Shown here piece by piece: positions 11,050-62,227 of a DNA stretch of 64,000 nt. A program made the translations under genes and the position numbers. The DNA is from Candidatus Bathyarchaeia archaeon (GTDB lineage Archaea; Thermoproteota; Bathyarchaeia; Bathyarchaeales; Bathycorpusculaceae). Location: positions 1 through 64,000 of the forward strand of contig JBEKTQ010000012.1 of assembly GCA_049515895.1 (NCBI GenBank), read 5' to 3'. Position 1 is the first letter of the stretch; every line of letters starts with the position of its first letter. The notes under the pieces are model-generated. The model saw only the letters and a program-made list of their open reading frames with translations, ran no database searches and was not told the origin of the DNA.

Positions 11050-11137
11050 CGCAAAAAAATCGATTCAGCAACCCGCTGACGCCAGGTGACAGAGAGACTA
11101 ACTGTGTCCGACAGACATTATTCACGGCGCGCGAGAA

Positions 11138-11187
11138 AATGGCGCGGGATGTGGGATTGGATTACCCTAAAAAAGCATGGGTTATTT
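11138..11187 (-). repeat. att-like direct repeat, copy 1 (degenerate tRNA-Leu 3' end plus 28-bp core)
   Basis: 46/50 identical to 14006-14055; on the minus strand it ends AATCCCACATCCCGCGCCA. Confidence 0.8.
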
Positions 11188-11370
11188 GATTTTAACGTTA
11201 GCATGACCTGAGCGTGCGCCCTGTCGCTCTTTATGGGTTTGGTTTTTCTTGTTTGAAGAGAGCTTGCAGAACCTGTGCAGATTTAAGACTTATCTTTATG
11301 AAAACTTAGCAGAAATTCATAAAACTGATTAAACAAGAATTGTCTGTAAGCTATGTTGAGGTAAACTGGA

Positions 11371-11739
11371 ACGTTCTGTCCTTCATGTGGCAAACAAGTA
11401 GAAGAAAACAATAATTTTTGTCCATATTGCGCCAAACCGTTACCCCCTGAAAAACCTCAAGTACGTCATGTTTGGAATCCGCCTACGAAACGACCTCAAC
11501 CCCAAGCAGAACAGCGTAATTTCACGCCCCAACAAGAGTTTCTTCTTGGGTTTGTGCGCGCGCGCAAGACGCAAAAAATAAAAACCTGCTGGCGAGTGCT
11601 TGAAAGAGCCAGAGACAAAACAGAAGAACAGCTTAAAGGGAGAATAGTTAGAAAGTTAGAAAATGAGCGCAATAATATTAGTTCCTGTGTTCATAGTCTT
11701 TTTGGTAATGATGGTGTACGTCTTCTATTGGTGTGCTAA
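11371..11739 (+). pseudogene. Double zinc-ribbon protein remnant with ACG in place of ATG; appears broken at the (GC)5 run
   Basis: GAGGT SD, then ACG-FCPSCGKQVEENNNFCPYCAKPL; the hydrophobic stretch EFLLGFV ends at GCGCGCGCGC (11556-11565). Confidence 0.65.
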
Positions 11740-12259
11740 GGAGTCAAGTAAAGCCCGAGCAAAGAGTAAGCTTAAGCATCCTACCGATTGGGAGAAGATG
11801 CTTGAAAGAGAAAGAAGAAAGAAAGAAAACGTCACTTCATTTGTTGTCGCTTTAGCCTATGTTTATATTTGGGCTTTTAAAGAACGTCAATCCTATTACC
11901 GAAAAATTAGCGAAAAAGAAGAAAGACCTTATTACATATCTAATGAAGAATTAAAGAAAATCAACGATTTAGCTAAGCTTGCAGGTGAAGAAACTGGAAA
12001 CGACGAGCTTTGGAAAGTTATTAGTTACGTGGAGCTAACAGGCGCAAGACTAAAAGAAGCCATCAAAGCTGTTGAGTGCGACAAGATTACTTATGAACAG
12101 GTTACTGAATTTTTGCAAAAGCAGGGCAGAAAAGCGCATGATCTTCGCCAAAAATGGATGTTTCATGCTGTACTAATTAATGCGCATCCACAAGTAGCGG
12201 GTAAGCTATTAGGTCATAAGTTTTCGAAAATCACAGTTGACGACGAAGAAGAAAAATAG
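11663..12259 (+). CDS. Degenerate tyrosine-recombinase-like protein with N-terminal TM segment
   Basis: ELTGARLKEA (R), KAHDLR (HxxR), KLLGH; no Tyr after LLGH; hydrophobic N-terminus. Confidence 0.7.
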   Translation: MSAIILVPVFIVFLVMMVYVFYWCAKESSKARAKSKLKHPTDWEKMLERERRKKENVTSFVVALAYVYIWAFKERQSYYRKISEKEERPYYISNEELKKINDLAKLAGEETGNDELWKVISYVELTGARLKEAIKAVECDKITYEQVTEFLQKQGRKAHDLRQKWMFHAVLINAHPQVAGKLLGHKFSKITVDDEEEK

Positions 12260-12444
12260 TTGACTCAATTATTGAAAGCGGAGCCAGATAAAAGATGAAA
12301 TCTCGGGTTGAGGAAATTCGTTAAATTCCCTACATTGTTTTCGACTCAATAATTATCCAAGCCAACCTTAATGACTTTTCTGCCCCAGTAACCTGAGCCA
12401 AAAACAGCCAGGTTAGCGTTTCCATTCATCTCCATACTTATCCT

Positions 12445-13431
12445 CTATTTAACGATGGAAAAATCGTCGACCTTTTTACTTGCATAATCAATTTCATCTT
12501 TTTTATGCCACGCGAGACATGCTTGTATGCCTTCTTCCAGAGAGACTTTGGGGGCGTAACCGAGCGCTTTGTTCGCTTTTTTGATACAGGCGAGGGTCAC
12601 CTTGACATCGCCTCTTTGAGGAGGTTGGTGGTCGATTTTGGCTTTTTTGCCGGTTGTTTTCTCGATGATTCTCACGAGGTTATTGATGGTGGTTTTTCTA
12701 CCCGAGCCAATATTGAATACCTCGCCATCTGAATTGTTTAAACTTGCAAGCAAATTCGCTTGAATTATGTCTGCTACATAGGTGAAATCTCTTGCTTGGT
12801 TGCCGTCGCCGTAGATTGTTATTGGTTCATTTGCCAGGATTGCTTTGAGGAATCTGTGTATGGCTAGGTCGGGACGAAGTTTTGGTCCATAAACCGTGAA
12901 AAACCTCAAGCAAGTCATCGGTATTCCGAAGCTCTTGTTGTATGCCATGCAAAGGTTTTCTGCTGCCAGTTTGGTGACGCCGTAGGGCGAGATGGGTCTT
13001 GGCAATTTTTTTTCTGTGATTGCCCGACTATTTATTTGACCATAAACAGAGGAAGAAGACGCAAACACAAACTTTTTGGGGGTATTCTTTATGCACTTTT
13101 CCAGAAGGCTTTGAGTTGCGAGAATGTTATTGCGCAAGTATATGTCGAAGGTTTGACCCCAAGATTTTCTAACGCCGGGCTCGGCCGCAAAATGAAAAAT
13201 TAATTCTGGCTGTATGTCGTTAAGTTCTAAGTCGAGGACGTCCAGAGGCAGGAATTTGAAGTTTTCGCAGGTTAACAAATGTGCCAAATTGCGAAGTTTG
13301 GTTTCCTTCGAATAATAGTCAGTAAAACAATCTACGCCGACAACATCGAATTTAGAGATGAGGCTTTCTGCAAGATGAGATCCTATGAAGCCAGCAACCC
13401 CGGTAACTAACGCTGTTTTTTTCAAGACCAA
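12445..13431 (-). CDS. NAD-dependent nucleotide-sugar epimerase (UDP-glucuronate/UDP-glucose 4-epimerase-like, extended SDR)
   Basis: TGVAGFIG, ASSSSVYG, YGVTK (YxxxK), RFFTVYGP, RPDLA. Confidence 0.92.
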   Translation of the reverse strand: MVLKKTALVTGVAGFIGSHLAESLISKFDVVGVDCFTDYYSKETKLRNLAHLLTCENFKFLPLDVLDLELNDIQPELIFHFAAEPGVRKSWGQTFDIYLRNNILATQSLLEKCIKNTPKKFVFASSSSVYGQINSRAITEKKLPRPISPYGVTKLAAENLCMAYNKSFGIPMTCLRFFTVYGPKLRPDLAIHRFLKAILANEPITIYGDGNQARDFTYVADIIQANLLASLNNSDGEVFNIGSGRKTTINNLVRIIEKTTGKKAKIDHQPPQRGDVKVTLACIKKANKALGYAPKVSLEEGIQACLAWHKKDEIDYASKKVDDFSIVK

Positions 13432-13655
13432 TACCTCTTAAACTGCATGATGAATAGTTGATGCATACGGCGTCCGCAAATAGTTAATTTCGTCTTTCGG
13501 CAATATTAGGGTAATTGAACTTCTCAAACAGGCTTTGCAGAGTTATTCCTTTAAAGTAATGTTGAAAAGGTTCTGTTACCTCTTCGGTAATCCATGACTT
13601 CTTTTGAGACGGTTGCTTTTCGGTTGATAACTACTCATTGTAGCCAGATATACCG

Positions 13656-13862
13656 TTAAGCCATACCAAAAGAATAGATAAGGTACAGAAATATCACTAA
13701 CATCAAGCTTCCAGCAATAATGCAATCTATCATTATCCTGTTTGCCGATCTTACACCTTGCCAATCCTTTGAATGTTTACGTTTGTACAGTAAGTTGAAA
13801 ACTAATCCTGCAATTATTATTGCAAAACATATAGCAATTGCTTCAAAAATCAAGATTTCCAT
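13656..13862 (-). CDS. Small two-TM membrane protein
   Basis: Two hydrophobic helices separated by a basic loop. Confidence 0.6.
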   Translation of the reverse strand: MEILIFEAIAICFAIIIAGLVFNLLYKRKHSKDWQGVRSANRIMIDCIIAGSLMLVIFLYLIYSFGMA

Positions 13863-14005
13863 TTTTTTCTCTAATCCTGTTTTGTAAACTTAGTATTTGA
13901 ATCTTTACCGTTGCAAAAATTAGTTGCTATGGGTAAATTTTATTCTAACAAAACTCCTCTCGAACCGCAAAACAAATCTATGACATTTGAAGAATAAATA
14001 ATTGG

Positions 14006-14055
14006 AATGGTGCGGGAGGCGGGATTTGATTACCCTAAAAAAGCATGGGTTATTT
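14006..14055 (-). repeat. att-like direct repeat, copy 2 (tRNA-Leu 3' fragment plus 28-bp core)
   Basis: Minus strand TCAAATCCCGCCTCCCGCACCA = part of T-loop, T-stem, acceptor strand (pairs with GCGGGAG), discriminator A and CCA. Confidence 0.85.
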
Positions 14056-14195
14056 ATTTATTCACTACAATTTGCCCTACCCACAGCCTTTCAGAGCAGC
14101 CACAAACACTACCTTGTTTGTCAGAAGAAACCCTGAAGAAAAGCCTGAACCAAGAAATATGAGCTGGAAATAGCAGACATCTAACCCCTTCTTAA

Positions 14196-14238
14196 TGGCG
14201 GGTCCGGTGGGACTCGCTTAATTATTTAAGCGAATCCC
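14196..14238 (-). other. Second tRNA 3'-end fragment (G discriminator, Lys/Arg-like) merged into a 13-bp inverted repeat; probable att scar
   Basis: Minus strand CGAGTCCCACCGGACCCGCCA; plus strand GGGACTCGCTTAA-TTAT-TTAAGCGAATCCC. Confidence 0.7.
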
Positions 14239-15211
14239 TAAAGGAAAGGCAACCAGCGACGCCATTGAAAACACTTTCTCTCTATCAGCAACACTTTCTG
14301 TCTACGGCTATTTTTACGAAGAAGAAAAGCAAAATAGCAGGAATCAATTCGGGTAAACTCTAAAACAAAGAGGTGGCAAGATAAGATTCCAGAAGCAAAA
14401 ACGTTCTTGCAAAAAGTTTGCGAGTAAAGCGCCTCGTCACGGTTAGGTGCTCGTTATCTCCGTGTCTGCTGGAGAATGATAACGGAGCACAGGTTTAAAA
14501 CGGCTTAGGCTTCTGTTTCTGTTTTATTTTGCCTTTCGTTTTCTGTTATAGCTGATTTCTTGGTTTGGTCTTGGATGCGAGGTTTGGCTTCATTGCTGGC
14601 TCTCCCATGAAAAAACACCCCTCCCCCTACCTATTTTCATCTTGAGGAGGCTACCCTACCCGAAAAGGGAATTAGAAAATAAAAAGAATATTGTGCATTA
14701 GCGCTAACCTTGTTATTGAGCCAGCCAACACTACTTCGGGGCTTCACACCATCGCAGCTGTTTGTTCTAAAAGCCGTTTGGAAGATTGGCATTGAAGCCG
14801 AAACTATTGGACAGAACAGTTACAACATCATAACTATCCTATTGAATAAGGCCAGCGCAATTTTGGTTCCCTTTGGCTTAGGTTGCGATGTTTCCGCTAC
14901 AGACGCTATGGCGGTTTTGGCGAAAGTCGTAGCGTTATTTCGGTTAGGTTGGCATACGGTCAGATTGATTGAGACTTATCTTTGTTGCGAATTGTGAAGA
15001 ATTTTTGATTTCGCCTGCAAGTTTCACTGTTATGAAGGCTATACAAATAACAGACAGAACTTCTGTTTTGCGTCCAGTTAGATATGGACTACTACATATC
15101 GCAGTCACTCGATTGAGCATCACCCATTCAGCGCGCGCTTACTATGTATTCAGGATTCATTGAGCTTATATAACAAATGTTCGATAACTTCTTTTTCTGG
15201 CGTTTAGATAA

Positions 15212-16129
15212 ATGTACTATTATGCATGGTACGGCTATAATCCCTCGAAAAAGATGGAGCTTAAAGCGCCAACGATTCAAGGAACAAAGGAAATTTCTGT
15301 TGTCATACCGGTTAGAAATAATCAAATAGGTATCAGCCGTTTTCTTCTAACATTTTTTAACAAATGTATGTCCACTTCGCTACCTCGAGAGGTTATTATC
15401 GTAAGAGACCACGGAACTCCAATTACCGTTCCTGAGGAATGCCGAACTTATGGAACCGAAGTAAAGGTATTGGACTCAGAAGGAACTGGACCTGCGAGCG
15501 CCAGGAATTTTGGATATAGAAACGCCAAAGGAAACTGGATACTCTTTACAGATAGCGATTGTATTCCTTCCTCAACACTTTTAGATGGTTATATCCGAGC
15601 GAGCAACGGATCAGTGGGCTATGCAGGCGCAGTTGCCTCTTTCGGAAAAGATATCATTTCAAGGTATTATGAAAGCCAAAGCATACTTGTCCCATCTGCA
15701 ACTTACAATAATAACGTCTACTCCCCCGACTATCTTATAACGGCAAACTCGCTAGTTTGGAAAGATGCCTTCGAATTAGTTGGGGGTTTCGACGAGGAAA
15801 TCCAAATAGCAGCAGGCGAAGATGTTGACCTCGGCTTTAGGCTGCGAGAAATAGGCCAATTAAGCTTTGCTCCCACTTCTGTTGTTTTCCATGATTTCGA
15901 TAATGGACTTGTGGGATTTGTTAAAAGATTTATTCGCTACGGAAGTGGAAATCGGCAACTCGCAAAAAGATATAGCTTAGCCATTAAGCCAAGACCATTC
16001 AAACCCGCAAATAATAATTTTGCAAATGCGATGTTAGCTTCTCTTCAATATCTGAGCATGCTTTGGGGTTGGCAGTCAAGCAACAAATTTACTCATAACC
16101 GCTACAATGGACTTAAGAATAGGGGATAA
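15212..16129 (+). CDS. Family 2 glycosyltransferase (start possibly 15253)
   Basis: ISVVIPVRN, GPASARNFG, FTDSD (DxD), GGFDE..GEDVDL. Confidence 0.9.
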   Translation: MYYYAWYGYNPSKKMELKAPTIQGTKEISVVIPVRNNQIGISRFLLTFFNKCMSTSLPREVIIVRDHGTPITVPEECRTYGTEVKVLDSEGTGPASARNFGYRNAKGNWILFTDSDCIPSSTLLDGYIRASNGSVGYAGAVASFGKDIISRYYESQSILVPSATYNNNVYSPDYLITANSLVWKDAFELVGGFDEEIQIAAGEDVDLGFRLREIGQLSFAPTSVVFHDFDNGLVGFVKRFIRYGSGNRQLAKRYSLAIKPRPFKPANNNFANAMLASLQYLSMLWGWQSSNKFTHNRYNGLKNRG

Positions 16130-16146
16130 AGCCTTTCTGGAGTGAC

Positions 16147-16402
16147 CGCGCGCGCTGGCACTCAGGTAACTCAAATCGCCTATATTAAAAACACTGGGAA
16201 CATCGCAGAAAACTTGACCATGTCCACGACCAGTTGGAGCCCATCAAACGCTTGGACATATCTCACATTGAATTGGTCGCCAACATCATCAACATTAGCC
16301 GCTGGAGCAACAACTTCAGCAACATTAACTCTTACAGCATCATCAGGTGCAGGTGCACTCTCAACATTCAGCGTCAACATAGTCTTCACGGGCACACAGT
16401 AA
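16147..16402 (+). pseudogene. C-terminal half of a small secreted beta-sandwich protein, 5'-truncated at a (CG)n run
   Basis: AYIKNTGN..LTMSTTSWSPSNA..LTLNW..ATLTLT..FSVNIVFTG; no signal peptide; frame begins at CGCGCGCGC. Confidence 0.65.
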
Positions 16403-16857
16403 ACAACTCACCTTAACAAAACCACATCGGGAGACTCCAACATCAAAATTTCATCCATTAGCTTTCCCATCAAAATATTATGAAAGTCTTCCCTTTCCAT
16501 GCAGTACTTCGCTTCTTAAACAATGTAACGCTCAAAAAACAAATAAGCAATATTTCCAAAAACGCAAAATATCCAAAATCTGCATAACGAAGATTAAACT
16601 AAAACATCAGTGAAAGCAGTGTTGCGGGCATAGTCACGACTAAGCAGAGTAAATGTTAAAAAAAATGGAGATGATGAAAGCACTCTAGGTTTCGCTTTCT
16701 ATATTAAAGTTGGAAAAATTAGTTGGCATGGTGTCAGTTTCTTGGCAATTCGAAGAGGGAATTTTTTTGGGGGGTTGGTTTTTCCATGTGGATGCAGCTT
16801 TGTCGTCTTTTTTTATGAATTTTTTGTTATAAACCCTACCTTTTTCCTTTTTTTCAA

Positions 16858-17871
16858 TTAGTTGCTTTTAGATTCAAACCATTTTATTGTTTCTTTAAGC
16901 CCTTCGTCGAAGCTTACGCTTGGTCTCCACTTCAAAAGTTTTTCTATTTTGTGTGTGTCGGGGCAGCGTCTTTTTGGGTCATCTATAGGCAGTGGTTGAA
17001 ATTTGATTGCTGAATGGCATTTGGATATTTTCTTGATTTTTTTTGCAAGCTCCAGAATTTCTATTTCTTGAGTATTTCCAATATTTACCGCTTCACCAAT
17101 GGCTTTCTCGCAGGTTGACAGGAGCAACAAGCCAGCAACCGTATCTGTTACGTAACAAAATGTCCTCGTTTGTTTTCCATCACCATAAACCGTTATCGGT
17201 TCCTCAGTCAAAGCCTGCAATATGAAACGCGACATAGCCCTGCCATACAAGCCGTCTTCTCGTAAACGTGGGCCGTATGTGTTGAAAATCCTCGGAAGCT
17301 TCACGTCTAATCCATATTGCTCATGATATGCCATAAACAATGCTTCTGCAAACCGTTTTCCCTCATCATAACAAGACCGTGGACCAATCGGATTGACTGT
17401 TCCCCAGTATGTCTCGGGTGTAGGTACAATTTCTGCATCTCCATAAACCTCCGAAGTCGAAGCAAACAGTAAAGTAGCATCGTTCTTCCTAGCCAAGTCA
17501 GCCATATTAGCACTACCCACGGAACTAGTCTGCAATGTTTCAATTGGATGCGCCTGGTACTCATCAGGGGACGCATGCCCAGCCATATGCAAAATGAAAT
17601 CGAACCTTTCTTGGCTTTTGAACGTACAAACATCCTCCTTTATGAATTTAAATTTGGGTTTATTCATCGAATGGTTAATGTTTTTCATTCGTCCAGTTGA
17701 TAAATCATCAACAACCGTTACATCAGCGCCAAAATCAACTAGCACATCGCAGAGCCAACTGCCGATAAAACCCGCTCCTCCCGTTACTAGCACCTTCTTT
17801 TCCGTGAAGGACTCGCCTTTCACGTTGCTTTTTATTTTTTCAATGCCTTCGCGTATTATGTCGTCCATCAT
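16858..17871 (-). CDS. uxs: UDP-glucuronate decarboxylase (UDP-xylose synthase)
   Basis: TGGAGFIG, ASTSEVYG, GPRSCYDEGKR, RIFNTYGP, DDPKRRCPD. Confidence 0.92.
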   Translation of the reverse strand: MMDDIIREGIEKIKSNVKGESFTEKKVLVTGGAGFIGSWLCDVLVDFGADVTVVDDLSTGRMKNINHSMNKPKFKFIKEDVCTFKSQERFDFILHMAGHASPDEYQAHPIETLQTSSVGSANMADLARKNDATLLFASTSEVYGDAEIVPTPETYWGTVNPIGPRSCYDEGKRFAEALFMAYHEQYGLDVKLPRIFNTYGPRLREDGLYGRAMSRFILQALTEEPITVYGDGKQTRTFCYVTDTVAGLLLLSTCEKAIGEAVNIGNTQEIEILELAKKIKKISKCHSAIKFQPLPIDDPKRRCPDTHKIEKLLKWRPSVSFDEGLKETIKWFESKSN

Positions 17872-18024
17872 AGACTTATGCTCCTACAAAACTGGTTGTA
17901 CGAAAGCTCTAACGCTTCCTAGTACAACTTTGCGAATCATTAACGTCATCTTACCTTAAGGTTTCTTATTTAGCAAATATATATTTAAGGTACCTTAATT
18001 CAAATTGCATTTAATCTAAGGGAT

Positions 18025-19374
18025 TTGCCTTTGAAAAAGCAACATAAAGTATCTGTAATAGGCGTAGGTTACGTGGGTTTATGTACAGCAGTCGGATTTG
18101 CGAGCCGAGGTTGTGATGTCCTCGCTTCGGATGTTGACGCTGAGAAGGCAGCAAAAATTAACCAAGGTATTCCCCCTTTCCATGAGCCTGATCTCCAAGA
18201 AAAGCTAAAGGTCTGTATTCAAAGAGGCACACTGAAATGCTTAGTTAACCAATCTGAAAAAGTCGTATGTGATTCAGACTTGACTTTTGTGACAGTTGGT
18301 ACACCGAGCAAACCAGACGGCAGCATAAACCTCAAATGCATAAAATCAGCCGCACATGACATAGGCAAAGCGCTAAAACAAAAGAAACACTACCATGTCA
18401 CCATAATCAAAAGCACCGTCGTACCTGGAACAACACAAAACGGTGTCAAACCAATTCTCGAAAAAGAATCAAAAAAAACCTGTGGTTCAGATTTCGGTTT
18501 ATGCATGAACCCAGAATTTCTCCGACAAGGCTCAGCATTCCAAGACACTATAAATGCCGACCGCGTAGTCATAGGTTCACATGATAAACGATCAGGCGAC
18601 GCCTTGGAAGAATTATACAAAGACTTCTATAGCGCTCATTTACCTCCAATAATTCGGACCACACTTTCCACAGCTGAACTCATAAAATACGCCAGCAACG
18701 CCATGCTAGCCACAAAAATCAGCTTCATAAACACCATAGCTAACATATGCGAAAAAATCCCAGGCGCAGACGTCAAAGTTGTAGCAACAGCCATGGGACT
18801 AGACAAACGCATAGGACCACAATTCCTAGACGCAGGCTTGGGCTACGGAGGCTCATGCTTTCCCAAAGACGTAAAAGCCCTCATCGCCTCCTCAAAAACC
18901 TTCAACTACCCTCCTGAACTTTTAGAATCTGTTGAAAATGTAAATCACAATCAACCTCTCAAAGCGATTGAGTTCTGCAAACAACGACTCGGTAACTTGG
19001 CAGGCAAAAACATTGCTATCTTAGGCTTAGCCTTCAAACCCGACACAGATGATATGAGAGAAGCCCGGGTGATACCCATAATAAACCATCTGCTTAAGGA
19101 AGGTGCCAACGTAACTGCCTACGACCCAGTAGCAGTCGCCGTCGCGAAAGCCCTCTTTCAAAACAAAATCCAATACGCCCCCACAGCCGTTAACTGCCTT
19201 AAAAATGCAGACTGCGCCATACTAGTAACTGAATGGGATGAATTCAAAAAACTCACCCCTGAAGACTTCACAAAAAACATGAGACAACCCATACTCATCG
19301 ACGGCAGAAGAATCTATAACCCTGAGCTCTTCAGCAAAAAACTCAATTTCACGGCGATAGGCCTAGGAAACTAA
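18025..19374 (+). CDS. ugd: UDP-glucose 6-dehydrogenase
   Basis: GVGYVG, KSTVVPG, NPEFLRQG, GYGGSCFPKD, GLAFKPDTDDMRE. Confidence 0.95.
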   Translation: MPLKKQHKVSVIGVGYVGLCTAVGFASRGCDVLASDVDAEKAAKINQGIPPFHEPDLQEKLKVCIQRGTLKCLVNQSEKVVCDSDLTFVTVGTPSKPDGSINLKCIKSAAHDIGKALKQKKHYHVTIIKSTVVPGTTQNGVKPILEKESKKTCGSDFGLCMNPEFLRQGSAFQDTINADRVVIGSHDKRSGDALEELYKDFYSAHLPPIIRTTLSTAELIKYASNAMLATKISFINTIANICEKIPGADVKVVATAMGLDKRIGPQFLDAGLGYGGSCFPKDVKALIASSKTFNYPPELLESVENVNHNQPLKAIEFCKQRLGNLAGKNIAILGLAFKPDTDDMREARVIPIINHLLKEGANVTAYDPVAVAVAKALFQNKIQYAPTAVNCLKNADCAILVTEWDEFKKLTPEDFTKNMRQPILIDGRRIYNPELFSKKLNFTAIGLGN

Positions 19375-19536
19375 ATTCAAAAAGATAGGGCACTACATCA
19401 CGATTGCCATTTATTATAATATTTGCTTTAATCAAGAAGCTCCACTTATCAGAGACAAAGTTGCTTCCTAATGGCAGATGCATAATTCTCGCGCTAATCG
19501 TACGAAATTTAAGTCTGTCTGTCGCGGTCAGCAGTT

Positions 19537-19800
19537 TTAATTATTTTGATTATCGTGTGGGCATTGTAACAGTTTTGAAGAAAGTCGCCAAACAAAGAAG
19601 CCAAGTGCGCTGGCAAGAAATGACAAAACTGTGAAGGTGTCTAATCTCAGCCAGGGAAAAAGGTGAGAAACAGGAGTGGGTAACCATGCTGGCTGAGTAA
19701 TCTGTGTTGCCACCCCGTAGAACCAACCGAGCAAACCAAATATGAAAAGCATTTCTCCAATGACGTTTATGACGAAAATGGGTCTGAAGGTTTTCTTCAT
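19537..19800 (-). CDS. Small two-TM membrane protein
   Basis: Hydrophobic helices, WLRLDTF loop. Confidence 0.65.
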   Translation of the reverse strand: MKKTFRPIFVINVIGEMLFIFGLLGWFYGVATQITQPAWLPTPVSHLFPWLRLDTFTVLSFLASALGFFVWRLSSKLLQCPHDNQNN

Positions 19801-20035
19801 AGCTTTCTATTAACGAAAACATTCACTTTTAAAGATGACTCTAGCGGTAGCTATGATTTTAGGATTTATCCTACTGGGGAGCTTTTGGTTTGATTCAACA
19901 ATGTTTCCATTGTTGTTTCCGTCTTGTTTCTTCATTTTACTCTGAGGTCGTTTTCGCGGCGTGTGAAACCCCGCACCGTGCAGGAGGTTTTGTTAATCGC
20001 CTTATAGTTCAAGAGCAAGCGCGGAATTTGACGAA

Positions 20036-54454: not shown

Positions 54455-54471
54455 GAAACAAACATTCCTTT

Positions 54472-54717
54472 TTACTTACTTCTAAATATCACAATGTTCA
54501 ACCACATTTCTTCAAAACTTTGGTTGCCTGCGTTAGGATAGAGTTCTTTATATGCGCTCGTTATCATCCCAGCGGTTATCATCACATGCGCAAATGACTT
54601 GAAGGTGAGTCCATCAGTACATTCTTTAAGAATCTCAATATTCTTCTGATTATCAGTCACGCTTGTTACCTCTTCAGTGTTTATGGTCCATTTGTTTAAG
54701 TGTTTTTTGCACATCAA
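54472..54717 (-). CDS. Small hypothetical protein
   Basis: 81-aa ORF co-oriented with mrr. Confidence 0.4.
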   Translation of the reverse strand: MMCKKHLNKWTINTEEVTSVTDNQKNIEILKECTDGLTFKSFAHVMITAGMITSAYKELYPNAGNQSFEEMWLNIVIFRSK

Positions 54718-55615
54718 AAATCAAACTGAACCTATGCCAAAATACGCCAAAACCATCTTAAGAATCATCCAATCCCCAAAATCCCAAAAGGAACTCCCGT
54801 CAATCTCCTCTTCATAAGTCTTCGGTCAATCTCCTGTTTTTGGGGGATTTACCAATGTTTATCAATGTCCATTGTTCTTCGTTTTTCTTCGCTGGGTATC
54901 TCTGAGAAGTTTTGCTTTCTTTGTTCACTAAGGTATTTCTTGTATTAGCCATCTTTTTTTAGATTTTAAGCACATTCTTCAATTCTGTTGACTACTTTTG
55001 GTCGTCCAAGAAGAGATTTGCCCTTTGTTGTTAACACATTTACCAGTTTTATCTACACATTCTGATATGTTTTTTAATGGTTTTTTAAGTTCAACCCTCG
55101 GTCAAAATTCGGCTAGAAAGACAGGGGAAAAGCATGTAAATCCTGTCCCCTTACCTCAAACACATTGGTCAGAACGACCCCTGTAGCGTAGTTTTTCTCC
55201 AAAATGAGGGTTTCGTTCGTTTTGGCTTTTCAAGGTTAAAAGATTATTTTCTTTCAAGGAATTAGAAATGTGTTGATTTACACATTTTCCGCAAAGTCTA
55301 CACAATAAAATTGGAAGCTACACAATAGAACTGGACAATGCCATAATCTCTAAACTATTTGCCAAAGCAAAGAGAAAAAAGAAGGTTAACCTGTTTAGCT
55401 TATCGAAATACCCTTGAAGGAAAGCGAATATTTTCACGGAACTGCGGATTTGAGCATGAAGACGTAACAGAAGTGGCTAGACATGAGAACAAAGGTCATA
55501 GACCTAACACAACTTAAGGAATTGTGAGAACTCGCAATCTGAAAGGTGATAAGGCGTACCAAAAGGAAAATCTTAAGCAGTAGACACCGCAACTAACTCT
55601 GAAGCTGGTTCGACA

Positions 55616-56437
55616 ATGGTACACGATGAGAAGGTAAGAATGTCTGAACAAGACGCAATTTACTCAAAAATTCTAATAGATGCCATTCATGTGTGTAAAA
55701 ATTACAGACCACGCTTCGGGTCTCAGAAAAAGGGGTACACTCTTGAGGAATTCAAGGTCCTTTATGGACAAGACCCATTCTATTCTTGGATGGGACTTGA
55801 TTCTCCGCTTCTCTATTCAGCACATAAAGCTGCTGGTGGCATGACTTCAATTTATCGGCAAATAGGCATTGGTTGCCAAGAACTTTTCTTAAGAATATTG
55901 ATGGATTACATTGGACTTACTAAAAATGAGGCTACTTGGTCGTACAAGATAAAAAGACCTGACGGAACATCACGCACTCTTTCGCTTGATGGACGCATTC
56001 CCTTAAGCTCTGTTAAAGAGAAAGCAAAAAAGGAGACTATTCATAACTGGTTGTTGGAAGCTGGACGAAAACTAAGAGTTCAGGAAAGTATCCTGTCAGT
56101 TCTAAACGGAGTAGTTTTTGAGGTTCGGCAAGGGTATAAAAGCAAGGATTCGAAAAGGCAAAATGCAGACATAGCCAATGCAGCTATGGCTTACACCGAA
56201 GGTTATCTCCCCGTAACTCTTCTATTGTCCAGTCAGATTGATAACGACATAGCCAATAGATACGAAGAGCAAAGATGGGTAATTCTCAGAGGTTCGATTA
56301 ATGGTTCTCCCTATTTGTCCACGTATGCCTTTTGCAAACAGATTCTGGGATATGACCTTGCAAGTTTCTTTGAGAGAAATTCCCCACGGTTCAAGAATGA
56401 GGTTGAAAACGTCTTAAAGTTGTTGCTGTCCCCATGA
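55616..56437 (+). CDS. Putative type II restriction endonuclease
   Basis: SLDGRI..FEVRQGYKSKD PD-(D/E)XK-like core; ATGA overlap with the methyltransferase. Confidence 0.75.
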   Translation: MVHDEKVRMSEQDAIYSKILIDAIHVCKNYRPRFGSQKKGYTLEEFKVLYGQDPFYSWMGLDSPLLYSAHKAAGGMTSIYRQIGIGCQELFLRILMDYIGLTKNEATWSYKIKRPDGTSRTLSLDGRIPLSSVKEKAKKETIHNWLLEAGRKLRVQESILSVLNGVVFEVRQGYKSKDSKRQNADIANAAMAYTEGYLPVTLLLSSQIDNDIANRYEEQRWVILRGSINGSPYLSTYAFCKQILGYDLASFFERNSPRFKNEVENVLKLLLSP

Positions 56438-57666
56438 ATAGTGTTGACTTAACATTCAAGCATAATATCAATAAAGGCAGACATGGCTGGATTCGATTAA
56501 CACCCGCTTATTCGATAATTTTAGTGAAGAACATTCTCGATGACTTATCAGATGGCGAAAAAGAGTATGTTCTTGACCCCTTTTCTGGAACAGGAACCAC
56601 AGGATTAGTGAGTGCCGAAAGTGGGATACCTTGCGATTTGTATGAAACAAATCCATTTCTCGAATGGATTGCAAGAGCTAAAACGCGAAGATATTCTTCA
56701 GACCAGATTGAAAATGCTCGAAAAGCAGCATTACTAATAATAAAAGACGCAAACGATTATCCAAGCAATAAACTATGGGCACCAGCTATTTTCAGAATAG
56801 AGCGATGGTGGAATCCCACGGTATTAGATGTTCTGAAACGTGTTTGTTTTGGGATTAGTCTAAATACTGAAAAAGATGATGGGTACATAGCTGATTTGCT
56901 CAGAGTCGCATTTTGTAAATTGCTAATCAAGTGGTCAAATGCAGCTTTTAATCATCAATCCATGAGTTTCAAACAAGAGGCACAAAATGATTCACTCAAA
57001 GACAACTTGCTGAAAGAAATGCTTGATTTCTTTGAACTCGAGTTGAACCAGATATTAGAAGCAGCATCACAAAATCCAAATGCTCAGGTAAATGTTTACC
57101 TTCATAACTCAAAGAAAATGCCTTCAGACATAAAGAGTAGGTATACTTGTGTCATCACATCCCCGCCTTATGCTAATAGAATGAGTTACGTAAGGGAAGT
57201 GAGACCCTACATGTATTGGCTGAACCTAATTAAAGAAAGCAAAGAAGCTGCTGACATAGAATGGGATGCAACAGGTGGAACATGGGGCACAGCAACAAGC
57301 AGGCTCAATGGCTGGAAACCCAGAGGGTTTTTCAAAAATGATAGAGAGTTCTTGGAAATGATTACTAAAATTAATGCGGAAAGTCAATTACTGGCTAATT
57401 ATGTTCATAGATATTTTGAAGACATGTATTCTCATTTTTCAAGTCTCTCTTCAGTCCTAAAACAAAGCGCACAATTGCACTATATCATCGGAAACTCGAA
57501 GTTCTATGATATTATTGTTCCAACTGAAGAAATTTACGCTAAAATCATGAAGAACAATGGATTTGAAAATGTCAAGACAAACCTGTTGAGGAAAAGAAGC
57601 TCCAAAAAAGAGCTATATGAGTTTCATATTTCTGCGAATTATGAAAAATCTTCATTAATGTGCTGA
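56434..57666 (+). CDS. Amino-DNA methyltransferase, probably N4-cytosine, motif I before motif IV
   Basis: VLDPFSGTGTT and ITSPPY. Confidence 0.9.
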   Translation: MNSVDLTFKHNINKGRHGWIRLTPAYSIILVKNILDDLSDGEKEYVLDPFSGTGTTGLVSAESGIPCDLYETNPFLEWIARAKTRRYSSDQIENARKAALLIIKDANDYPSNKLWAPAIFRIERWWNPTVLDVLKRVCFGISLNTEKDDGYIADLLRVAFCKLLIKWSNAAFNHQSMSFKQEAQNDSLKDNLLKEMLDFFELELNQILEAASQNPNAQVNVYLHNSKKMPSDIKSRYTCVITSPPYANRMSYVREVRPYMYWLNLIKESKEAADIEWDATGGTWGTATSRLNGWKPRGFFKNDREFLEMITKINAESQLLANYVHRYFEDMYSHFSSLSSVLKQSAQLHYIIGNSKFYDIIVPTEEIYAKIMKNNGFENVKTNLLRKRSSKKELYEFHISANYEKSSLMC

Positions 57667-57741
57667 ATTGAAAAGATGAGAGAGATTCTAAATCTCTAAG
57701 TTTTAAATATCAACACAGCACAAACAACTAAACGATTCCAA

Positions 57742-58644
57742 ATGACCACTACAACTAAAGAAATGAAACTTACTTTGACTCTGAGAGACCCCAGAGCAAA
57801 AGAAATCGTTGAAGCAATCCCAGTCAAACAAAGAGATGAAGCCATAGAAAAGTACATCATACTTGGAGACATGGTTGTCTCTCACGCTTCACTAACCACC
57901 AGTAAAGAGACCGTGGAACAATTCTTCGCACCCCTCACACAAGATATAGAAAACATAAGAGAACAACTAAGACAGATAGTTCCCACAGTAAAAACTCCTT
58001 CAATGAAGGGGAAAATAACAGTAGAAGCAGTATATAATAGTCTGCGAGAGCACTTCATGGATGACACATTCGAAGATGTCTCAAGAATAGGAAAATACAC
58101 AGACATCCTTGCCACAACTTCAGAGTCAAAAACTCCTGTCCTAATAGAATTAAAAGACTACGATAACACCGTACCTACAATTGAAGTAGAAAAGTTTTGG
58201 AGAGACATAGAACTCAGAGGAACACGATACGGAATATTCATTTCCATGCGAACAGCCATAACAAAGTGCTCAAGTTGCATCAACCTCAAGACAGAAATGA
58301 ACAAGACAGCCATTTTCGTCAACAACAGTGAACTCAACTGGTCAGGACATATCTTCGCTTTTTATGTCATCAAAAAGATAGCGGAACTAGAATCTATCAA
58401 GAAGAAAGAGTTGAAAGGCGAAGAGGTCAACAAAGTGATTGCTAAAGTCAACAAGCACATCCAAGACCTACAGAAACAAGTTGACTCCATAGAAAAGATA
58501 ATCGAAATCTCTGAGAAGCTCAAAACAACCGCTAAGAACAGCCTTGAGGACTTAATCAGCATTTCAAACGCTTTGAAGAGAAATATGAACGAGAAAATCA
58601 AGGATGTGCTTACTGATTTGGAAGGAGTAACCATCTGTGAATAA
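57742..58644 (+). CDS. Coiled-coil PD-(D/E)XK nuclease (RmuC/DUF2130-like)
   Basis: SMKG..TDI..LIELKDY..VEKFWRD..GIFIS; flanking coiled coils. Confidence 0.7.
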   Translation: MTTTTKEMKLTLTLRDPRAKEIVEAIPVKQRDEAIEKYIILGDMVVSHASLTTSKETVEQFFAPLTQDIENIREQLRQIVPTVKTPSMKGKITVEAVYNSLREHFMDDTFEDVSRIGKYTDILATTSESKTPVLIELKDYDNTVPTIEVEKFWRDIELRGTRYGIFISMRTAITKCSSCINLKTEMNKTAIFVNNSELNWSGHIFAFYVIKKIAELESIKKKELKGEEVNKVIAKVNKHIQDLQKQVDSIEKIIEISEKLKTTAKNSLEDLISISNALKRNMNEKIKDVLTDLEGVTICE

Positions 58645-59260
58645 TCTATGTCCATTCTTCAAGACTGACTGTCATGGTAACGAATGTGCAATGTGGAAAG
58701 ACGAGCATTGTCTCATCGTTAATTTCCTTCAAAGTTTTCAACAGTATGCTTCAGAAGGCTCTGAAGCTTCATCGGAAGAGGGAATGGGAATAGATGTTGA
58801 AGTACCTGTAAGAGAAAGTGCAAGAGTGCCTAAGTGGTTGAAAACTGCCACTGCTGAATCTTTAGCTAAGGAAATTCTTGAATTTAAAGATGAAAAGTTC
58901 CCAGATGGAGATAGGTTTGGCACGTACTCTGCTTCTCGACTGTTTTGGAGTAGTAGAGGGGTGCAGAGGTTTGGTTTGACACCTGAAATAGAGACAAAAA
59001 TCGAGCAAGCGGACATGTTGGCAGAACAACAGATGAGGAAAGAAGAAGCTGATAAGCGTGTTGAACGATTCACAAGAGAGAAAGAAGAACTCCCATCGTT
59101 GATAGGTCAATGTGTAGATTATGCTAGGTCGAATGAGTTGAAGAAGCTCACTCAAGGCGAAGTAGAAGCTTTTGTCCAAGAGAAAGGCATGGATATACTA
59201 CCTGAAACATTGAGGCTTCTTTGGACTAAAACCAATTTAGCGTTAAAGACTGGAAAATAA
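58637..59260 (+). CDS. Hypothetical protein with N-terminal Cys4 motif
   Basis: CPFFKTDC..EC.MW..C; overlaps the upstream gene. Confidence 0.7.
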   Translation: MNNLCPFFKTDCHGNECAMWKDEHCLIVNFLQSFQQYASEGSEASSEEGMGIDVEVPVRESARVPKWLKTATAESLAKEILEFKDEKFPDGDRFGTYSASRLFWSSRGVQRFGLTPEIETKIEQADMLAEQQMRKEEADKRVERFTREKEELPSLIGQCVDYARSNELKKLTQGEVEAFVQEKGMDILPETLRLLWTKTNLALKTGK

Positions 59261-59414
59261 CAAAGCCGAAGGCGCGTGTGCTATTCAAAGACCTACCAGA
59301 CTTCAAACAGTACTGGGAAGAGAACATTGGCGAATGGGAAAACTCAACAATAGTCTGAATACATGAGTTTGAGTCGTAAGTAAAATTTAAAATGTCTAAA
59401 GAACAATACCTGAC

Positions 59415-60488
59415 TTGGTGCTTAAATTGGAAAGTGTATTTTCACAAGAGCAAATTGATAAGCTAATATCATGGAAGAGCTTTTTTCAAACGGAGAAAGT
59501 GCAAGCTTGGAAGGTTATTGAAGACAAAGCTGAGGAAGAAATACATAACATCTTAGAAACAACGGGCTTTGCCAAAGGAACTAACCTTACGGAAGCGAAC
59601 ATAGACCAGATTTTTCATTTAATGAGAAGCTTTTCTGCAAATAGAGCATTATCAAACCTTCTATATAGAAACAACACGATTGAAGTTTTTAACCAAAAAC
59701 TGAGAGAACTCTATTTTGGAAATTCACCTTTTTCTCAAAAAGTTAATGAGTTTTTCAAACTCGATGGAATAGGAATGCAAACTTTATCGCAACTTCTTGT
59801 AGCACTAGATTCTAGAAAGTATCCGCTTATCACTTCCCAAACTAAAGATGTTTTAGAGCTTGATGCGCAACAGGAGCAGAAAGCATTGGAGATAGCATTG
59901 AAGAAGTTTGAGATAGTAGACTCCCAGCAATATCTAGATTTAACGCTTGATTATCTCGCGGATTTTGTGATTTTTGAACAAATTAAAGAGCTAACCAACC
60001 TAGAAAAGTATACCTCTGTTAACAATATTATATGGTTTGCCAACAAAGAAGACAAAGTAGGTCCAGAAGAAGCTCTTGAGCAATATACCTCTTTTACTAT
60101 TGAGAAAGACCTTAAGGAATACTTAGCAAAGAATCCACATCTTTTGGAAAAAGGACTTAAAATGATTGGGAAGGAATTTCCAACCAAAGAAGTTGGAAAC
60201 ATTGACCTTCTTCTAGTCGATAACAAAGGCTATGATGTTGTTGTAGAGTTGAAGAAAGGCAGAGCAAGCGATGATGTAGTTGGTCAAATATCGCGTTACA
60301 TGGGATGGGTAATCAAAAACAGAAACAAAAAAACCAGAGGTATCATAGTAGTTAACGAACCTGACCAGCGGTTGGACTACTCTATATTGCCTTTTGGTGG
60401 TTCGATAAAAATAAAGTACTATCGAGTCAAGTTTGACTTAACTGACGAATACAAAGAAGACAAGTCCAATTCCGTTGAAGAGAAGTGA
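59415..60488 (+). CDS. NucS/EndoMS-like (DUF91) nuclease with N-terminal helical domain
   Basis: EKDLKEYL..EF..GNIDLL..VVELK..VGQISRYMGW. Confidence 0.85.
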   Translation: MVLKLESVFSQEQIDKLISWKSFFQTEKVQAWKVIEDKAEEEIHNILETTGFAKGTNLTEANIDQIFHLMRSFSANRALSNLLYRNNTIEVFNQKLRELYFGNSPFSQKVNEFFKLDGIGMQTLSQLLVALDSRKYPLITSQTKDVLELDAQQEQKALEIALKKFEIVDSQQYLDLTLDYLADFVIFEQIKELTNLEKYTSVNNIIWFANKEDKVGPEEALEQYTSFTIEKDLKEYLAKNPHLLEKGLKMIGKEFPTKEVGNIDLLLVDNKGYDVVVELKKGRASDDVVGQISRYMGWVIKNRNKKTRGIIVVNEPDQRLDYSILPFGGSIKIKYYRVKFDLTDEYKEDKSNSVEEK

Positions 60489-61327
60489 AAAGAATGCGAT
60501 TACTCTTCAAGGAAGCCATCGAGACTTGCTTTCACCCATCAGAAGAACGTTCAAAGAAGCTAAATGAGTGGGTTAAAAACGCAAACTCAGCAAGAGACAC
60601 AAAAAATGCAGATGCTAAACTAAACCAGTACGACAAAGCTGAAGAACTAATAACCTTCTACACCTTCGCTCCCTTGGTGTTAAGCTTAAACAGGGTAGGC
60701 TTAACCAATAGAATTCTCGGTTTGGCTGGTGTAAGTACGTTTGAAGAGGAAGTAGTTGATGTTGCTCTGGAACGACAATACAGACCACCAAAAGGCTACT
60801 TGAAATGGATAAGAGATGAAGTTAAGAATCATCCTGTAAAATACATTCGAGAACAGGCTAACGCACACAAAGCAAACCAGCCGTTAGAATCAAACACTCA
60901 CGTTGACGCATTCATAGAAACCGACAAATTGCTAATCTTCTTTGAAATAAAGTTCACCTCAGACATCTCCCACAGCACAACCTTCAACCCTTGCAGAAAC
61001 CAGTTGGCAAGGTTAATCGATGTTGGATTAGATGTGAATGAACACAATGGCAAAGAAGTACTAGTTATTCTGTCAACTCCACGCAGATTCTTCGAAAAGA
61101 AGAGCAGACTCTACTACTATAAAATCGCGGAATACGCTCACCCAGAGAAAATAAAGGAAGACATCGAGTGGAGAAGCCTTTCAACTATTAAAGATAACGT
61201 TTTAGCTGTAAGGTGGATTGCTCTCGGAGACCTGATTGATGTACTCTACAAAGACTTTGAGCATAAGGACAAAGAAGAAGCATTAGAGTTCTTCAAAGAG
61301 AGAAACCTATCGTCAAATGTTACGTAG
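60485..61327 (+). CDS. PD-(D/E)XK nuclease-family protein
   Basis: THVDAFIE..FFEIKFTSD..RNQLAR; GTGA overlap with the upstream gene. Confidence 0.75.
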   Translation: MKRMRLLFKEAIETCFHPSEERSKKLNEWVKNANSARDTKNADAKLNQYDKAEELITFYTFAPLVLSLNRVGLTNRILGLAGVSTFEEEVVDVALERQYRPPKGYLKWIRDEVKNHPVKYIREQANAHKANQPLESNTHVDAFIETDKLLIFFEIKFTSDISHSTTFNPCRNQLARLIDVGLDVNEHNGKEVLVILSTPRRFFEKKSRLYYYKIAEYAHPEKIKEDIEWRSLSTIKDNVLAVRWIALGDLIDVLYKDFEHKDKEEALEFFKERNLSSNVT

Positions 61328-61343
61328 CACATTATGTCAAACG

Positions 61344-61532
61344 TTAGTCATCGTTCCCTCTTGTTTGCCACAGAATAAGGTCAATCTTCTTAGTGTTGGA
61401 AATTCCAGAACTCGGAAATTTCTTATCAAACTCGATAATCGCTTCCTTGCTTTTCTCTGTATTTAGATAATTCTTGTACCAGTCAACAATTGAAACGTAC
61501 AACTTCTTTGTCTTGTTTTTAAGGTTAACTAT
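61344..61532 (-). pseudogene. C-terminal remnant of a helical protein
   Basis: LYVSIVDWYKNYLNTE..FDKKFP..ISNTKKIDLILWQTR-stop with no start codon; GCGCGCGC lies just upstream. Confidence 0.55.
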
Positions 61533-61580
61533 TTAGCGTTTTGGAAGCGCGCGCTTAAAAGCGACAATAAAAAAAAGCGA

Positions 61581-61802
61581 TTATGGTTTACCCATTCGCT
61601 TCTTATATATTTCATCGATGGTAGTAGTGCCCGGAATGTTGTAAGCCTTAGCAATCGCCACAGCTTCGTCAACCCTTTTAGCGTCTAATAGACTGAGCCT
61701 TAAGAGTAAATCAACAAAACCTTCTTTACTCATTCCTTGGGTATTTCTAATCTTTTCAATCATATCATTTACTTCATAGCTAAGATATACTTGTGCAGAC
61801 AT
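61581..61802 (-). CDS. Small ribbon-helix-helix/CopG-like protein
   Basis: QVYLSYEVNDMIEKIR..GMSKEGFVDLLLR. Confidence 0.6.
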   Translation of the reverse strand: MSAQVYLSYEVNDMIEKIRNTQGMSKEGFVDLLLRLSLLDAKRVDEAVAIAKAYNIPGTTTIDEIYKKRMGKP

Positions 61803-62227
61803 ACTGTTTCACAAATTCCTCTCCAAGCAGGTGCTATAAACATTTTTTAAAATTTGAAGAACCCAGATTTAAGCTTATTTTACAATAACAAGTCCAAAGC
61901 TTGGCAATGAGGCGATATTTATTTTTTTTACTTGAAGAATAGACAGCTTTGGATTCCTTTTCAAAAAATAAACCGAAATAAGCCTTTTTCGAAATTGCAG
62001 TTTGTAGCCCTATCTTCTACTCGACCACTCTGGGGCCGTATGACACACACACGCGCTTACTAAACTTCCTGCAATTGTGAACACACCCTGCATGTGTATT
62101 AGCAAGTTTAAACTAAATTTGTAAACCAGTATTTTTTATTGATAAATTAAAATTTAATCTCTATTGCTAATTCGGTTTGTCTTCTTTTCATATTTGAAAT
62201 TCTAAGCAAAACCACCTCGTATTCTTA

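Follow-up and report, generated by a model that had tools for sequence, protein, structure and literature searches.

The stretch of DNA examined here, referred to as the window, comprises the first 64 kb of contig C12 of a Candidatus Bathyarchaeia genome (GenBank assembly GCA_049515895.1, contig JBEKTQ010000012.1). This genome, labelled G000, is metagenome-assembled, with 3.18 Mb in 53 contigs and a G+C content of 44.1%, compared with 40.4% for the window. Between ~6 and 37 kb the window carries a glycan-synthesis island (epimerases, GT2/GT4 transferases, asparagine synthase, DUF1616), and short tracts of alternating G and C, the subject of this work, occur both inside and outside this island. 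The long runs, defined as alternating G/C tracts of at least 8 nt, are non-coding and clustered, coincide with homology breakpoints to the nucleotide, and are real and fixed. They are tentatively interpreted, at slightly less than even confidence, as end-joints of mobile DNA: inserted, replaced or truncated segments would carry (GC)3–5 exactly at their ends. Bathyarchaeia are abundant, uncultured archaea of peat and sediment, and how their genomes change is poorly understood.

A first-pass annotation of the window had listed thirteen coordinates with alternating G/C runs, and a run is indeed present at each of them. The lengths are 5 nt at 24574, 26492, 59272 and 62052; 6 nt at 25050 and 38609; 7 nt at 11127 and 38464; 8 nt at 15131, 26590 and 61547; 9 nt at 16147; and 10 nt, the longest in the window, at 11556. 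Missing from that list are 20 additional 5-nt runs and five runs of 6–7 nt (7101, 9390, 29065, 39742 and 41567), all five of which lie within long open reading frames (ORFs). The five long runs compare with a mean of 0.21 under an order-1 Markov model and 0.38 under an order-3 model, and this number was attained in none of 150 simulations for each; an order-5 null is unusable because the model learns the runs themselves. For runs of at least 6 nt the excess is weak (14 vs 7.4–9.9 expected). In the window, the excess over chance is confined to the long runs, and the 5–6-nt runs that make up half of the listed ones occur at chance frequency, so that the suspected enrichment stands for the former and fails for the latter. 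Because a length of 5 nt is at chance, the runs at 24574, 26492, 59272 and 62052 are uninformative by length alone. All five long runs lie outside intact genes, as had been claimed; the one at 16147 starts an 86-aa ORF which is itself a C-terminal fragment.

The same excess is readily apparent at genome scale, where 103 runs of 8–12 nt were counted (55, 33, 13, 1 and 1 for lengths of 8, 9, 10, 11 and 12 nt, respectively). The word GCGCGCGC occurs at 112 sites vs ~15 expected under the order-3 model, the highest ratio of all 8-mers with a both-strand count of at least 60. The shifted word CGCGCGCG has 57 sites, nearly all within longer runs, and even-length G-to-C cores predominate (49 of 8 nt, 12 of 10 nt). 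With a greedy ORF set (at least 70 aa, covering 84% of the genome) serving as gene proxy in place of a gene caller, the share of runs fully within an ORF drops with run length, from 88% at 4 nt through 84% (5 nt), 68% (6 nt) and 53% (7 nt) to 30% for the long runs (31/103), the other 72 not being fully inside. Neither gene starts nor gene stops are favoured by the long runs (22, 21, 15 and 11 over the four configurations of gene orientation). No common sequence was found in the 206 flanks of the 103 runs; the sole bias concerns the outer adjoining base, with A-run-T in 50% of flanks. TA-flanked runs account for just 27 of the 206 flanks (13%), and Tc1-like TA footprints were rejected as the source of the runs on this ground. 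Furthermore, ten intervals of 10 kb hold at least three long runs each, where ~1.4 would be expected under random spread by our own estimate, made outside any computed simulation. Long runs favour intervals of lower G+C and lower coding density, and runs of other dinucleotides have a far smaller tail at these lengths.

The relation of the long runs to homology breakpoints was assessed through self-similarity within the genome. A match end lies within 5 nt of 15 of the 103 long runs, compared with 4.6 ± 2.1 for random intergenic positions (maximum 11 in 200 draws). BLAST match ends are exact only at junctions inspected base by base, and in the 16 junctions so inspected the similarity ends at the first or last base of the run, the partner copy mostly being without a run and going on into unrelated sequence. 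Examples are C6:2738, C11:14732 (98-bp partner, 100% identity), C24:16246, C21:123739, C16:36360 and C34:1566. Within the window, 26590 and 62052 coincide with paralogue boundaries, while 15131 and 16147 coincide with similarity starts in the relatives G012, G013 and G060. These relatives belong to a sample of genomes whose conserved genes are 70–83% identical to those of G000, the closest being too distant for nucleotide synteny. The statement that runs mark breakpoints is therefore borne out by the long runs. The segment between 15131 and 16155 contains the following features:

15131–15138, no strand: (GC)4 run, forming the left joint of the GT2 segment; G012 is similar from 15145 onward and has no run there.
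15212–16129, + strand: gene for a GT2 glycosyltransferase (305 aa) and the region upstream of it; a run on either side.
16147–16155, no strand: C(GC)4 run, forming the right joint of the GT2 segment; the next gene is truncated here.
16157–16402, + strand: C-terminal gene fragment; the homologues in G013 and G060 extend upstream past the position of the run.

The layout is thus run, 73 nt, gene, 17 nt, run. On the left, similarity to G012 begins 7 nt past the run, in agreement with the breakpoint proposed there. On the right, similarity to G013 and G060 begins directly after the run, and in both genomes the frame extends upstream; therefore the 86-aa ORF 16142–16402 is the 3′ part of a longer gene truncated at the run, which confirms the earlier suspicion that a fragment starts at this point. 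At the matching position of this right joint, the G013 homologue also has CGC.

In a separate case, a 1.5-kb unit is duplicated at C1:147998 and C39:622 with 87% identity, and the GC run at its left edge measures 9 nt in one copy and 7 nt in the other; runs are therefore able to persist and to change length by GC units.

The stretch 10800–17200 is present in peat and wetland metagenome sequencing runs from six studies. Contigs assembled from two of the sequencing runs, X1 and X2 (k=31 each; either may be the source of G000), span 11556, 15131, 16147, 25050 and 26590 with 0 differences and even depth. Since a run of 8–10 nt cannot bridge 31-letter words, the runs cannot have produced false joins. 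Scanning metagenomes with the GT2 protein brought up a single, separately assembled contig, which is identical to the window over 11212–20126 and so offers no strain comparison. Among the joints listed, the X1 and X2 contigs contain no alternative junction at a GC run, and length polymorphism of the kind shown by phase-variable simple sequence repeats is not seen at five long runs in these contigs, which drop rare variants; two further sequencing runs (X3, X4) cover the region solely as short low-depth pieces and contribute no alternative alleles. The junctions are real DNA, fixed in the sampled population, although rare alleles may escape contig assembly. Consequently, the ongoing shuffling of modules envisaged in the first-pass annotation is not supported, every tested junction being spanned in both sequencing runs without a difference.

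Mobile elements with alternating GC at their tips are present in the same genome. Two families of insertion sequences (IS), here called IS1 and IS2, were recognised. IS1 (G000 C10:118397–119506; 1,110 bp) has inverted repeats GCGCGC-TGSCTTGTCCC and a 307-aa transposase; IS2 (G000 C10:120127–121248) has inverted repeats GCGCGC-CAGTKYGTTGC and a transposase 41% identical to that of IS1. Both families are ~1.1 kb long with DDE transposases, and the exact GCGCGC tip is common to both despite the 41% identity. The transposase domains are DDE_Tnp_1 (PF01609, E 1.4e-15) and DUF772 (PF05598, E 6.4e-7). The nearest curated NCBIfam models, IS1182 and IS5, are not reached: IS1182 gives 86.7 and 150.5 bits (cut-off 270) and IS5_4 gives 74.5 and 122.9 bits (cut-off 140). 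At superfamily level, membership among IS5/IS1182-like insertion sequences is indicated by the DDE_Tnp_1-type transposase, the inverted repeats and the multiple copies, while the family score falls short and a target duplication is not seen. In G000, 29 ends of IS1/IS2 type and 11 transposase loci were counted; because several of these loci sit at contig ends, the actual copy number is likely to be higher. A total of 51 loci with relatives of the IS1 transposase were found, 51/51 in records named Bathyarchaeia or Bathyarchaeota. The end motif gave 85 distinct matches in 58 loci (51 from named Bathyarchaeia records and 7 from G016/G012), and the sequence beside the repeat core is GCGCGC in 48 of them, CGCGCGC in 10, GCGCGCGC in 5 and (GC)5 in 1, the remainder being shorter or decayed. 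The transposase or recombinase with a GCGC core that had been postulated from the window therefore has a counterpart in two GCGCGC-ended DDE families, while the shuffling attributed to it shows no sign of being under way.

In the window, such ends delimit an element without a transposase:

24574–25055, + strand: non-autonomous element, 482 bp, with IS1-type inverted repeats (left CGCGC-ACTGCCTTGTCCC, right GGACAAGCCA-GCGCGC).
24668–25012, + strand: passenger ORF, 114 aa, winged-helix, Lrs14/ArsR-like, below curated cut-offs.

The pair of runs at 24574 and 25050, earlier described as inverted ends, is accordingly the two ends of a non-autonomous mobile element, which has the repeats of the autonomous IS, lacks a transposase and occurs in several contexts. 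It is multi-copy in G000, G038, G031, G032, G040 and G009, with copies 75–91% identical. Its boundaries are the same in G038, G031 and G032 (query 1175–1657), the surrounding genes are just 70–80% identical between the genomes that carry it, and its depth in metagenome contigs is 5–20x that of its neighbours. Other non-autonomous copies, of 160–480 bp, carry no gene.

A composite arrangement was observed at locus L041 (G000 C11:14100–17100). There, one IS2 copy is cut internally by (GC)5; beyond it come a segment of 575 nt, another run, a GT2-like gene and another IS2 copy, this one internally deleted, and the whole arrangement lies between remnants of an IS1-type repeat. The two IS2 copies share stretches of 98 bp and 36 bp at 100% identity.

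For a gene bounded by bare runs, a comparison of filled and empty sites is available in G024, a genome of a different family of the same order as G000. On its contig C14, ~810 nt with one ORF lie between two conserved multi-copy blocks. The left joint reads ...CTCCATT-CGCGCGCGC-CTAGCG, that is, C(GC)4, and the right joint reads ...AAGGCA-GCGCGCGC-AACAAAC, that is, (GC)4. In G074 the two blocks lie ~50 nt apart, without the insert. At the sites without the insert in G074, G076, G085 (two copies) and at a further G024 locus, also without it, the left block ends in ...ATTCGC followed by an A-rich native continuation, and the right block is preceded by ...AAACTCCA-GCGC. From these sequences, inspected by eye and in two MAFFT alignments, the insert replaces the native spacer, each joint falling at a native CGC or GCGC that is now a (GC)4 run. 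In the left block of a third G085 copy, C(GC)4 is inserted at the corresponding point, unaccompanied by a gene. The GT2 segment of the window (15131–16155) is built like the G024 insert, which provides the cassette suggested for that pair of runs with an analogue. As an additional observation, the surrounding region (L110, G024:C14:1–1900) comprises four conserved multi-copy blocks (~1–136, 620–692, 1517–1600 and 1696–1900), whose order is preserved in several genomes of the G024 family, with variable DNA between them; it looks like a recurrent scaffold for variable genes.

Collectively, the segments ending in alternating GC are of three grades. The two ~1.1-kb DDE families with inverted repeats starting in GCGCGC form the first. 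The second consists of non-autonomous copies with the same repeats, with a passenger gene (24574–25055) or with none, and the third of single genes or gene fragments bounded by a bare run only, such as 15131–16155 (GT2) and 26492–26597. In the mechanism proposed for these joints, the run would be the end sequence used for joining. Being self-complementary in every register, an alternating GC tract could pair with another run or with a short native GCGC; the joint would regenerate a run of variable length (8–15 nt) and may seed a new one at a native GCGC. Within this genus, the GCGCGC-ended transposases are candidate enzymes, and host end-joining, for which Ku is present, may complete the joints.

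The link between solitary runs and these elements is seen in their positions. Apart from two runs, discussed below, the long runs of G000 are solitary; of these 101, 14 lie within 2 kb of a repeat end (3.8 expected) and 24 within 5 kb (7.6 expected), both counts exceeding all 300 random draws. Of the 23 runs in the single-contig genome G003, 4 have a repeat end no more than 200 bp away and 8 have one within 5 kb. Furthermore, both G003 and G000 contain IS end fragments of 45–125 nt that are cut on the inner side by (GC)4–6, at points where GC runs are missing from the intact element. The counts of repeat ends and of GCGCGCGC are correlated over 19 genomes of the genus (rho 0.83), with the reservation that kin are not independent and G+C may confound the relation.

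A homologue of Ku (PF02735, E 3.5e-41) is encoded at G000 C15:73226–73765 and in 15 of 18 congeners, so that Ku as a trait specific to G000 was rejected. The end-joining protein Ku is uncommon in archaea. A search of 12 genomes from other families of the order, G024 included, found no Ku. Ku may take part in the joints; as it is absent from the run-bearing G024, it is not required for runs.

Several results weigh against reading the runs as end-joints of mobile DNA. No target-site duplication was seen outside the GCGCGC tip in any of six complete IS copies or three copies of the small element; it is possible that the duplication is hidden within the GC tip, but its absence is odd for a DDE transposon. 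The continuation of the partner was recovered within 10 kb beyond the run in 2 of 21 cases, and most joints are therefore one-sided and not clean insertions. In none of 11 alignment rows (8 runs) does a run appear as a pure insertion in continuous paralogue similarity. Among the 103 long runs, just two form the tip of a recognisable inverted repeat, and IS-like sequence lies within 150 nt of 6/103 runs vs 14/1030 random intergenic positions, which is an enrichment but concerns a small minority. In other genomes, 3 of 28 truncation points of IS1 have a run within 16 nt. The element-rich G016 has 26 repeat ends and 17 runs, while G024 has 53 GCGCGCGC sites at ~41% G+C, with runs up to 15 nt, and G002 has 15, no IS1-family transposase match being found in either. 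The elements described here therefore do not explain all runs. The idea that the G024 runs near contig starts are tips of collapsed repeats was rejected, as the first 1.05 kb of its contigs C6 and C13 are single-copy. Finally, the G024 insert replaces ~50 nt, unlike the addition expected of simple transposition, and it is a single filled-versus-empty case from outside the genome of the window.

The runs might instead have come first, arising by slippage or some other process as palindromes prone to form Z-DNA or hairpins, which collect breaks and are merely targeted by the IS. A 4-bp duplication in a (GC)4 target would then leave GCGCGC on both sides, which would account for the lack of any duplication outside GCGCGC, and within this hexamer IS1 begins with TG and ends with CA, the classical DDE ends. 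This order of events also fits the runs in the transposase-free G024 and G002, the surplus of solitary runs over IS ends (101 vs 29), the 19 of 21 joints that are one-sided, and the variation by GC units between the old copies on C1 and C39 (9 vs 7 nt). It is difficult to reconcile with the finding that partners and relatives are without a run at the homologous position, where they have at most CGC or GCGC, which makes the run new at the joint in those cases. Across transposase lineages that share just 41% identity, moreover, the outermost 6 nt do not vary, unlike the next 3 nt, which is the usual two-part organisation of an inverted repeat, and other dinucleotide runs have a far smaller tail. 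Runs of 8–10 nt are also shorter than the tracts shown to be fragile. The Z-DNA-prone fragility already named as an alternative in the first-pass annotation survives in this form as a live rival, possible but doubtful. A different origin would make the solitary runs excision scars, in which the two tips of a GCGCGC-tipped IS or miniature were joined after loss of the element, with the link to truncated genes going back to earlier element-mediated deletions. The outer A (50%) and TA (13%) of the flanks, which lie between the values of IS ends (18 and 9 of 29) and background, would suit such scars, as would the predominance of even-length G-to-C cores (49 of 8 nt, 12 of 10 nt), the co-location of runs with elements and the presence of Ku in the genus. 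No scar was found within continuous homology, however (0/11 rows, 8 runs), and the joints are one-sided; runs occur in element-free genomes, G016 is element-rich and run-poor, and the run-bounded gene insert in G024 would be left unexplained. This origin is considered improbable.

Restriction cleavage at GCGC or GCGCGC followed by fill-in and Ku end-joining, a second mechanism put forward in the first-pass annotation, would be served by Ku in G000 and 15/18 congeners and by the Mrr_cat, N6/N4 methylase and NucS-like nuclease genes of the window, and a filled-in G^CGCGC cut does give (GC)5, although this is arithmetic only. The 8-nt form nevertheless predominates over the predicted 10-nt product (49 vs 12), the genome avoids neither GCGCGC nor CGCGCG, G024 is run-rich with no Ku match, and the partner sequences at the joints are mostly without a GCGC site, all of which makes this route very unlikely. 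The runs could also be a functional or repair-driven motif unrelated to rearrangement, either a regulator or insulator site or a palindrome of methylation-linked repair resembling HIP1 (GCGATCGC) of cyanobacteria. HIP1 is described as an over-represented GC-rich palindromic octamer (PMC4390886, PMC5861425), exceeding one copy per gene in some cyanobacteria (PMC5861425). The runs share this over-representation, and their intergenic position, the preference for the palindromic 8-mer over its shifted form (112 vs 57) and the retention of a run at the edge of the duplicated 1.5-kb unit are consistent with a function. Unlike the thousands of HIP1 copies spread through genes (PMC4390886, PMC5861425), there are ~100 copies here (112 sites), clustered, at breakpoints and 70% outside ORFs (31/103 runs inside). 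Gene starts and ends are not preferred (22, 21, 15, 11), the flanks share nothing, the run is absent at the orthologous G012 promoter, and the coincidence with homology breaks is exact; a function of this kind is therefore most doubtful. As for an assembly or library artefact, with chimeric joins at low-complexity GC runs, such joins might be suspected in a 53-contig metagenome bin, and within 2 kb of contig ends the long runs are about twofold more frequent than expected (24 vs 10.9). The same junctions are nonetheless carried, at even depth, by 31-letter-word contigs from two sequencing runs, an independent metagenome contig is identical, and the same type of joint is found in the single-contig G003. 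Misassembly, which the first-pass annotation had named as a refutation, is hence barely credible.

With the runs read as end-joints of mobile DNA, a bolder version can be formulated, in which (GC)n runs are the sole end signal of a cut-and-join system of Bathyarchaeia that moves single-gene cassettes bounded by (GC)4–7 alone. Runs would pair mutually or with native GCGC in any register, new runs would be seeded, and the GCGCGC-tipped IS would be one specialised user of the same chemistry. This version is speculative and, on the present evidence, rather unlikely; if true, the system would be an archaeal counterpart of integron or T4 PeSL cassettes with the shortest end signal known. More generally, if the runs are insertion or replacement ends, they would offer a simple sequence mark for recently acquired and broken genes. 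In annotation, they flag pseudogene fragments that are callable as small ORFs, such as 16142–16402. There would also be two new IS groups, unusual in their palindromic tip and lacking a visible target duplication, which would raise the question of whether so short a self-complementary repeat can serve a transposase or end-joining as end signal. No paper on GC-run joints in archaea, or on GC-tipped archaeal IS elements, appeared among the titles and opening lines of abstracts returned by literature searches.

The autonomous elements resemble IS5/IS1182-like IS and their miniature inverted-repeat derivatives (MITEs) in size (~1.1 kb), in the single transposase with DDE_Tnp_1 and DUF772, in their inverted repeats and multiple copies, and in the short non-autonomous forms. 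They differ in the 6-nt alternating GC palindrome at the tip of two 41%-identical lineages, in the lack of a visible target duplication in 9 copies, and in missing all curated NCBIfam cut-offs. Mobile insertion cassettes are passenger genes between IS-type inverted repeats, MIC231 of Bacillus cereus being an example. The element at 24574–25055, a multi-copy winged-helix gene between IS repeats without a transposase, is of this kind, whereas in the GT2 segment and in the G024 insert either end is only a bare (GC)4, with no further repeat. Like integron cassettes, the run-bounded units are single genes with or without a promoter, with a short recurrent boundary and clustered arrays in variable regions; unlike them, they have no attC-like site of 60–140 nt, just 8–10 nt, no common orientation, and partner sites without the motif. 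Integron membership is not indicated, the flanks of the 103 runs sharing nothing and their orientation being unbiased; an integrase was not searched for. PeSL cassettes of T4-type phages and lambdoid boundary sequences rely on ~50-nt motifs and homologous recombination between copies. The runs resemble these in being short recurrent intergenic sequences that flank single genes in hyperplastic regions and lie at mosaic joints, but the motif is 8–10 nt long here and the run is usually missing from the partner. In action, the bare-run cassettes may thus resemble mobile insertion, integron and PeSL cassettes, without the sites that define them.

The remaining run-bearing loci of the window are as follows:

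11127–11133, no strand: GCGCGCG run, 7 nt; a 55-bp direct repeat begins 5 nt downstream.
11138–11192 (copy 1, + strand) and 14006–14059 (copy 2): 55-bp direct repeat, 91% identity, flanking a 2.8-kb segment.
11371–11552, + strand: zinc-ribbon module without a start codon; the frame continues through the (GC)5 run.
11556–11565, no strand: (GC)5 run, spanned by contigs of two sequencing runs.
26492–26496, no strand: GCGCG, 5 nt, start of a short gene fragment; length at chance frequency.
26507–26599, + strand: ~31-aa fragment, asparagine synthase-like, 52% to the gene 29627–31492 (E 2e-5, weak); ends in the 26590 run.
26590–26597, no strand: (CG)4 run, end of the fragment; spanned by contigs of two sequencing runs.
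38464–38470, no strand: CGCGCGC run, 7 nt, intergenic; encloses ~140 nt together with 38609–38614.
38609–38614, no strand: GCGCGC run, 6 nt, intergenic.
61547–61554, no strand: (GC)4 run, intergenic.
62052–62056, no strand: CGCGC, 5 nt, immediately preceding a ~95-nt repeat also present on C6, C7 and C21.

The 2.8-kb segment between the direct repeats contains the zinc-ribbon remnant, the (GC)5 run, an unknown 198-aa ORF and an epimerase gene. Metagenome contigs break at 11276–11307 with several different continuations. The zinc-ribbon ORF has ACG at 11371–11373, where relatives start, and a stop codon three codons upstream; it is probably a pseudogene that has lost its start codon. In 50 of 60 congeners searched, the module stands at the head of open frames of 90–350 aa, with similarity limited to the first 30–45 residues. 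At 26470, GCCTTGTCCC is a candidate element remnant without a GC tip. The GT4-like tail reported to start at 26496 looks wrong, as the fragment resembles the asparagine synthase at 29627–31492, a weak match (E 2e-5). The run at 62052, in contrast, does mark the start of a repeat, and the copies on C6, C7 and C21 are preceded by other sequence than that at 62052. The interval enclosed by the runs at 38464 and 38609 contains a ~35-nt unit (tttcgggtcgtaa[c/g]cttatggga...) duplicated in tandem (38480–38560), and no IS-type repeat could be recognised in it.

No tRNA gene and no Rfam family was found on searching the window for both. A defence-like island at 45942–61327 holds a DUF4365 protein (611 aa), a transglutaminase-like protein, DUF5131, two Mrr_cat nucleases, a DNA methylase (N6/N4) fragment, a NucS_C-domain protein and many adjacent ORFs without a Pfam family. 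Two ORFs on the − strand, 20036–20662 and 32842–33441, match different parts of DUF1616 (profile positions 3–120 and 158–280). They lie 12 kb apart in an order incompatible with a single gene split by an insertion, and are probably two truncated paralogues flanking the glycosyltransferase cluster. At 9298–11049, a PETase/chlorophyllase-like hydrolase ORF of 583 aa contains internal repeats (~9485–10091) that also occur on C7, on C18 and in most congeners, and in the metagenomes this repeat region reaches up to 8x the depth of its neighbours, with many variant joints.

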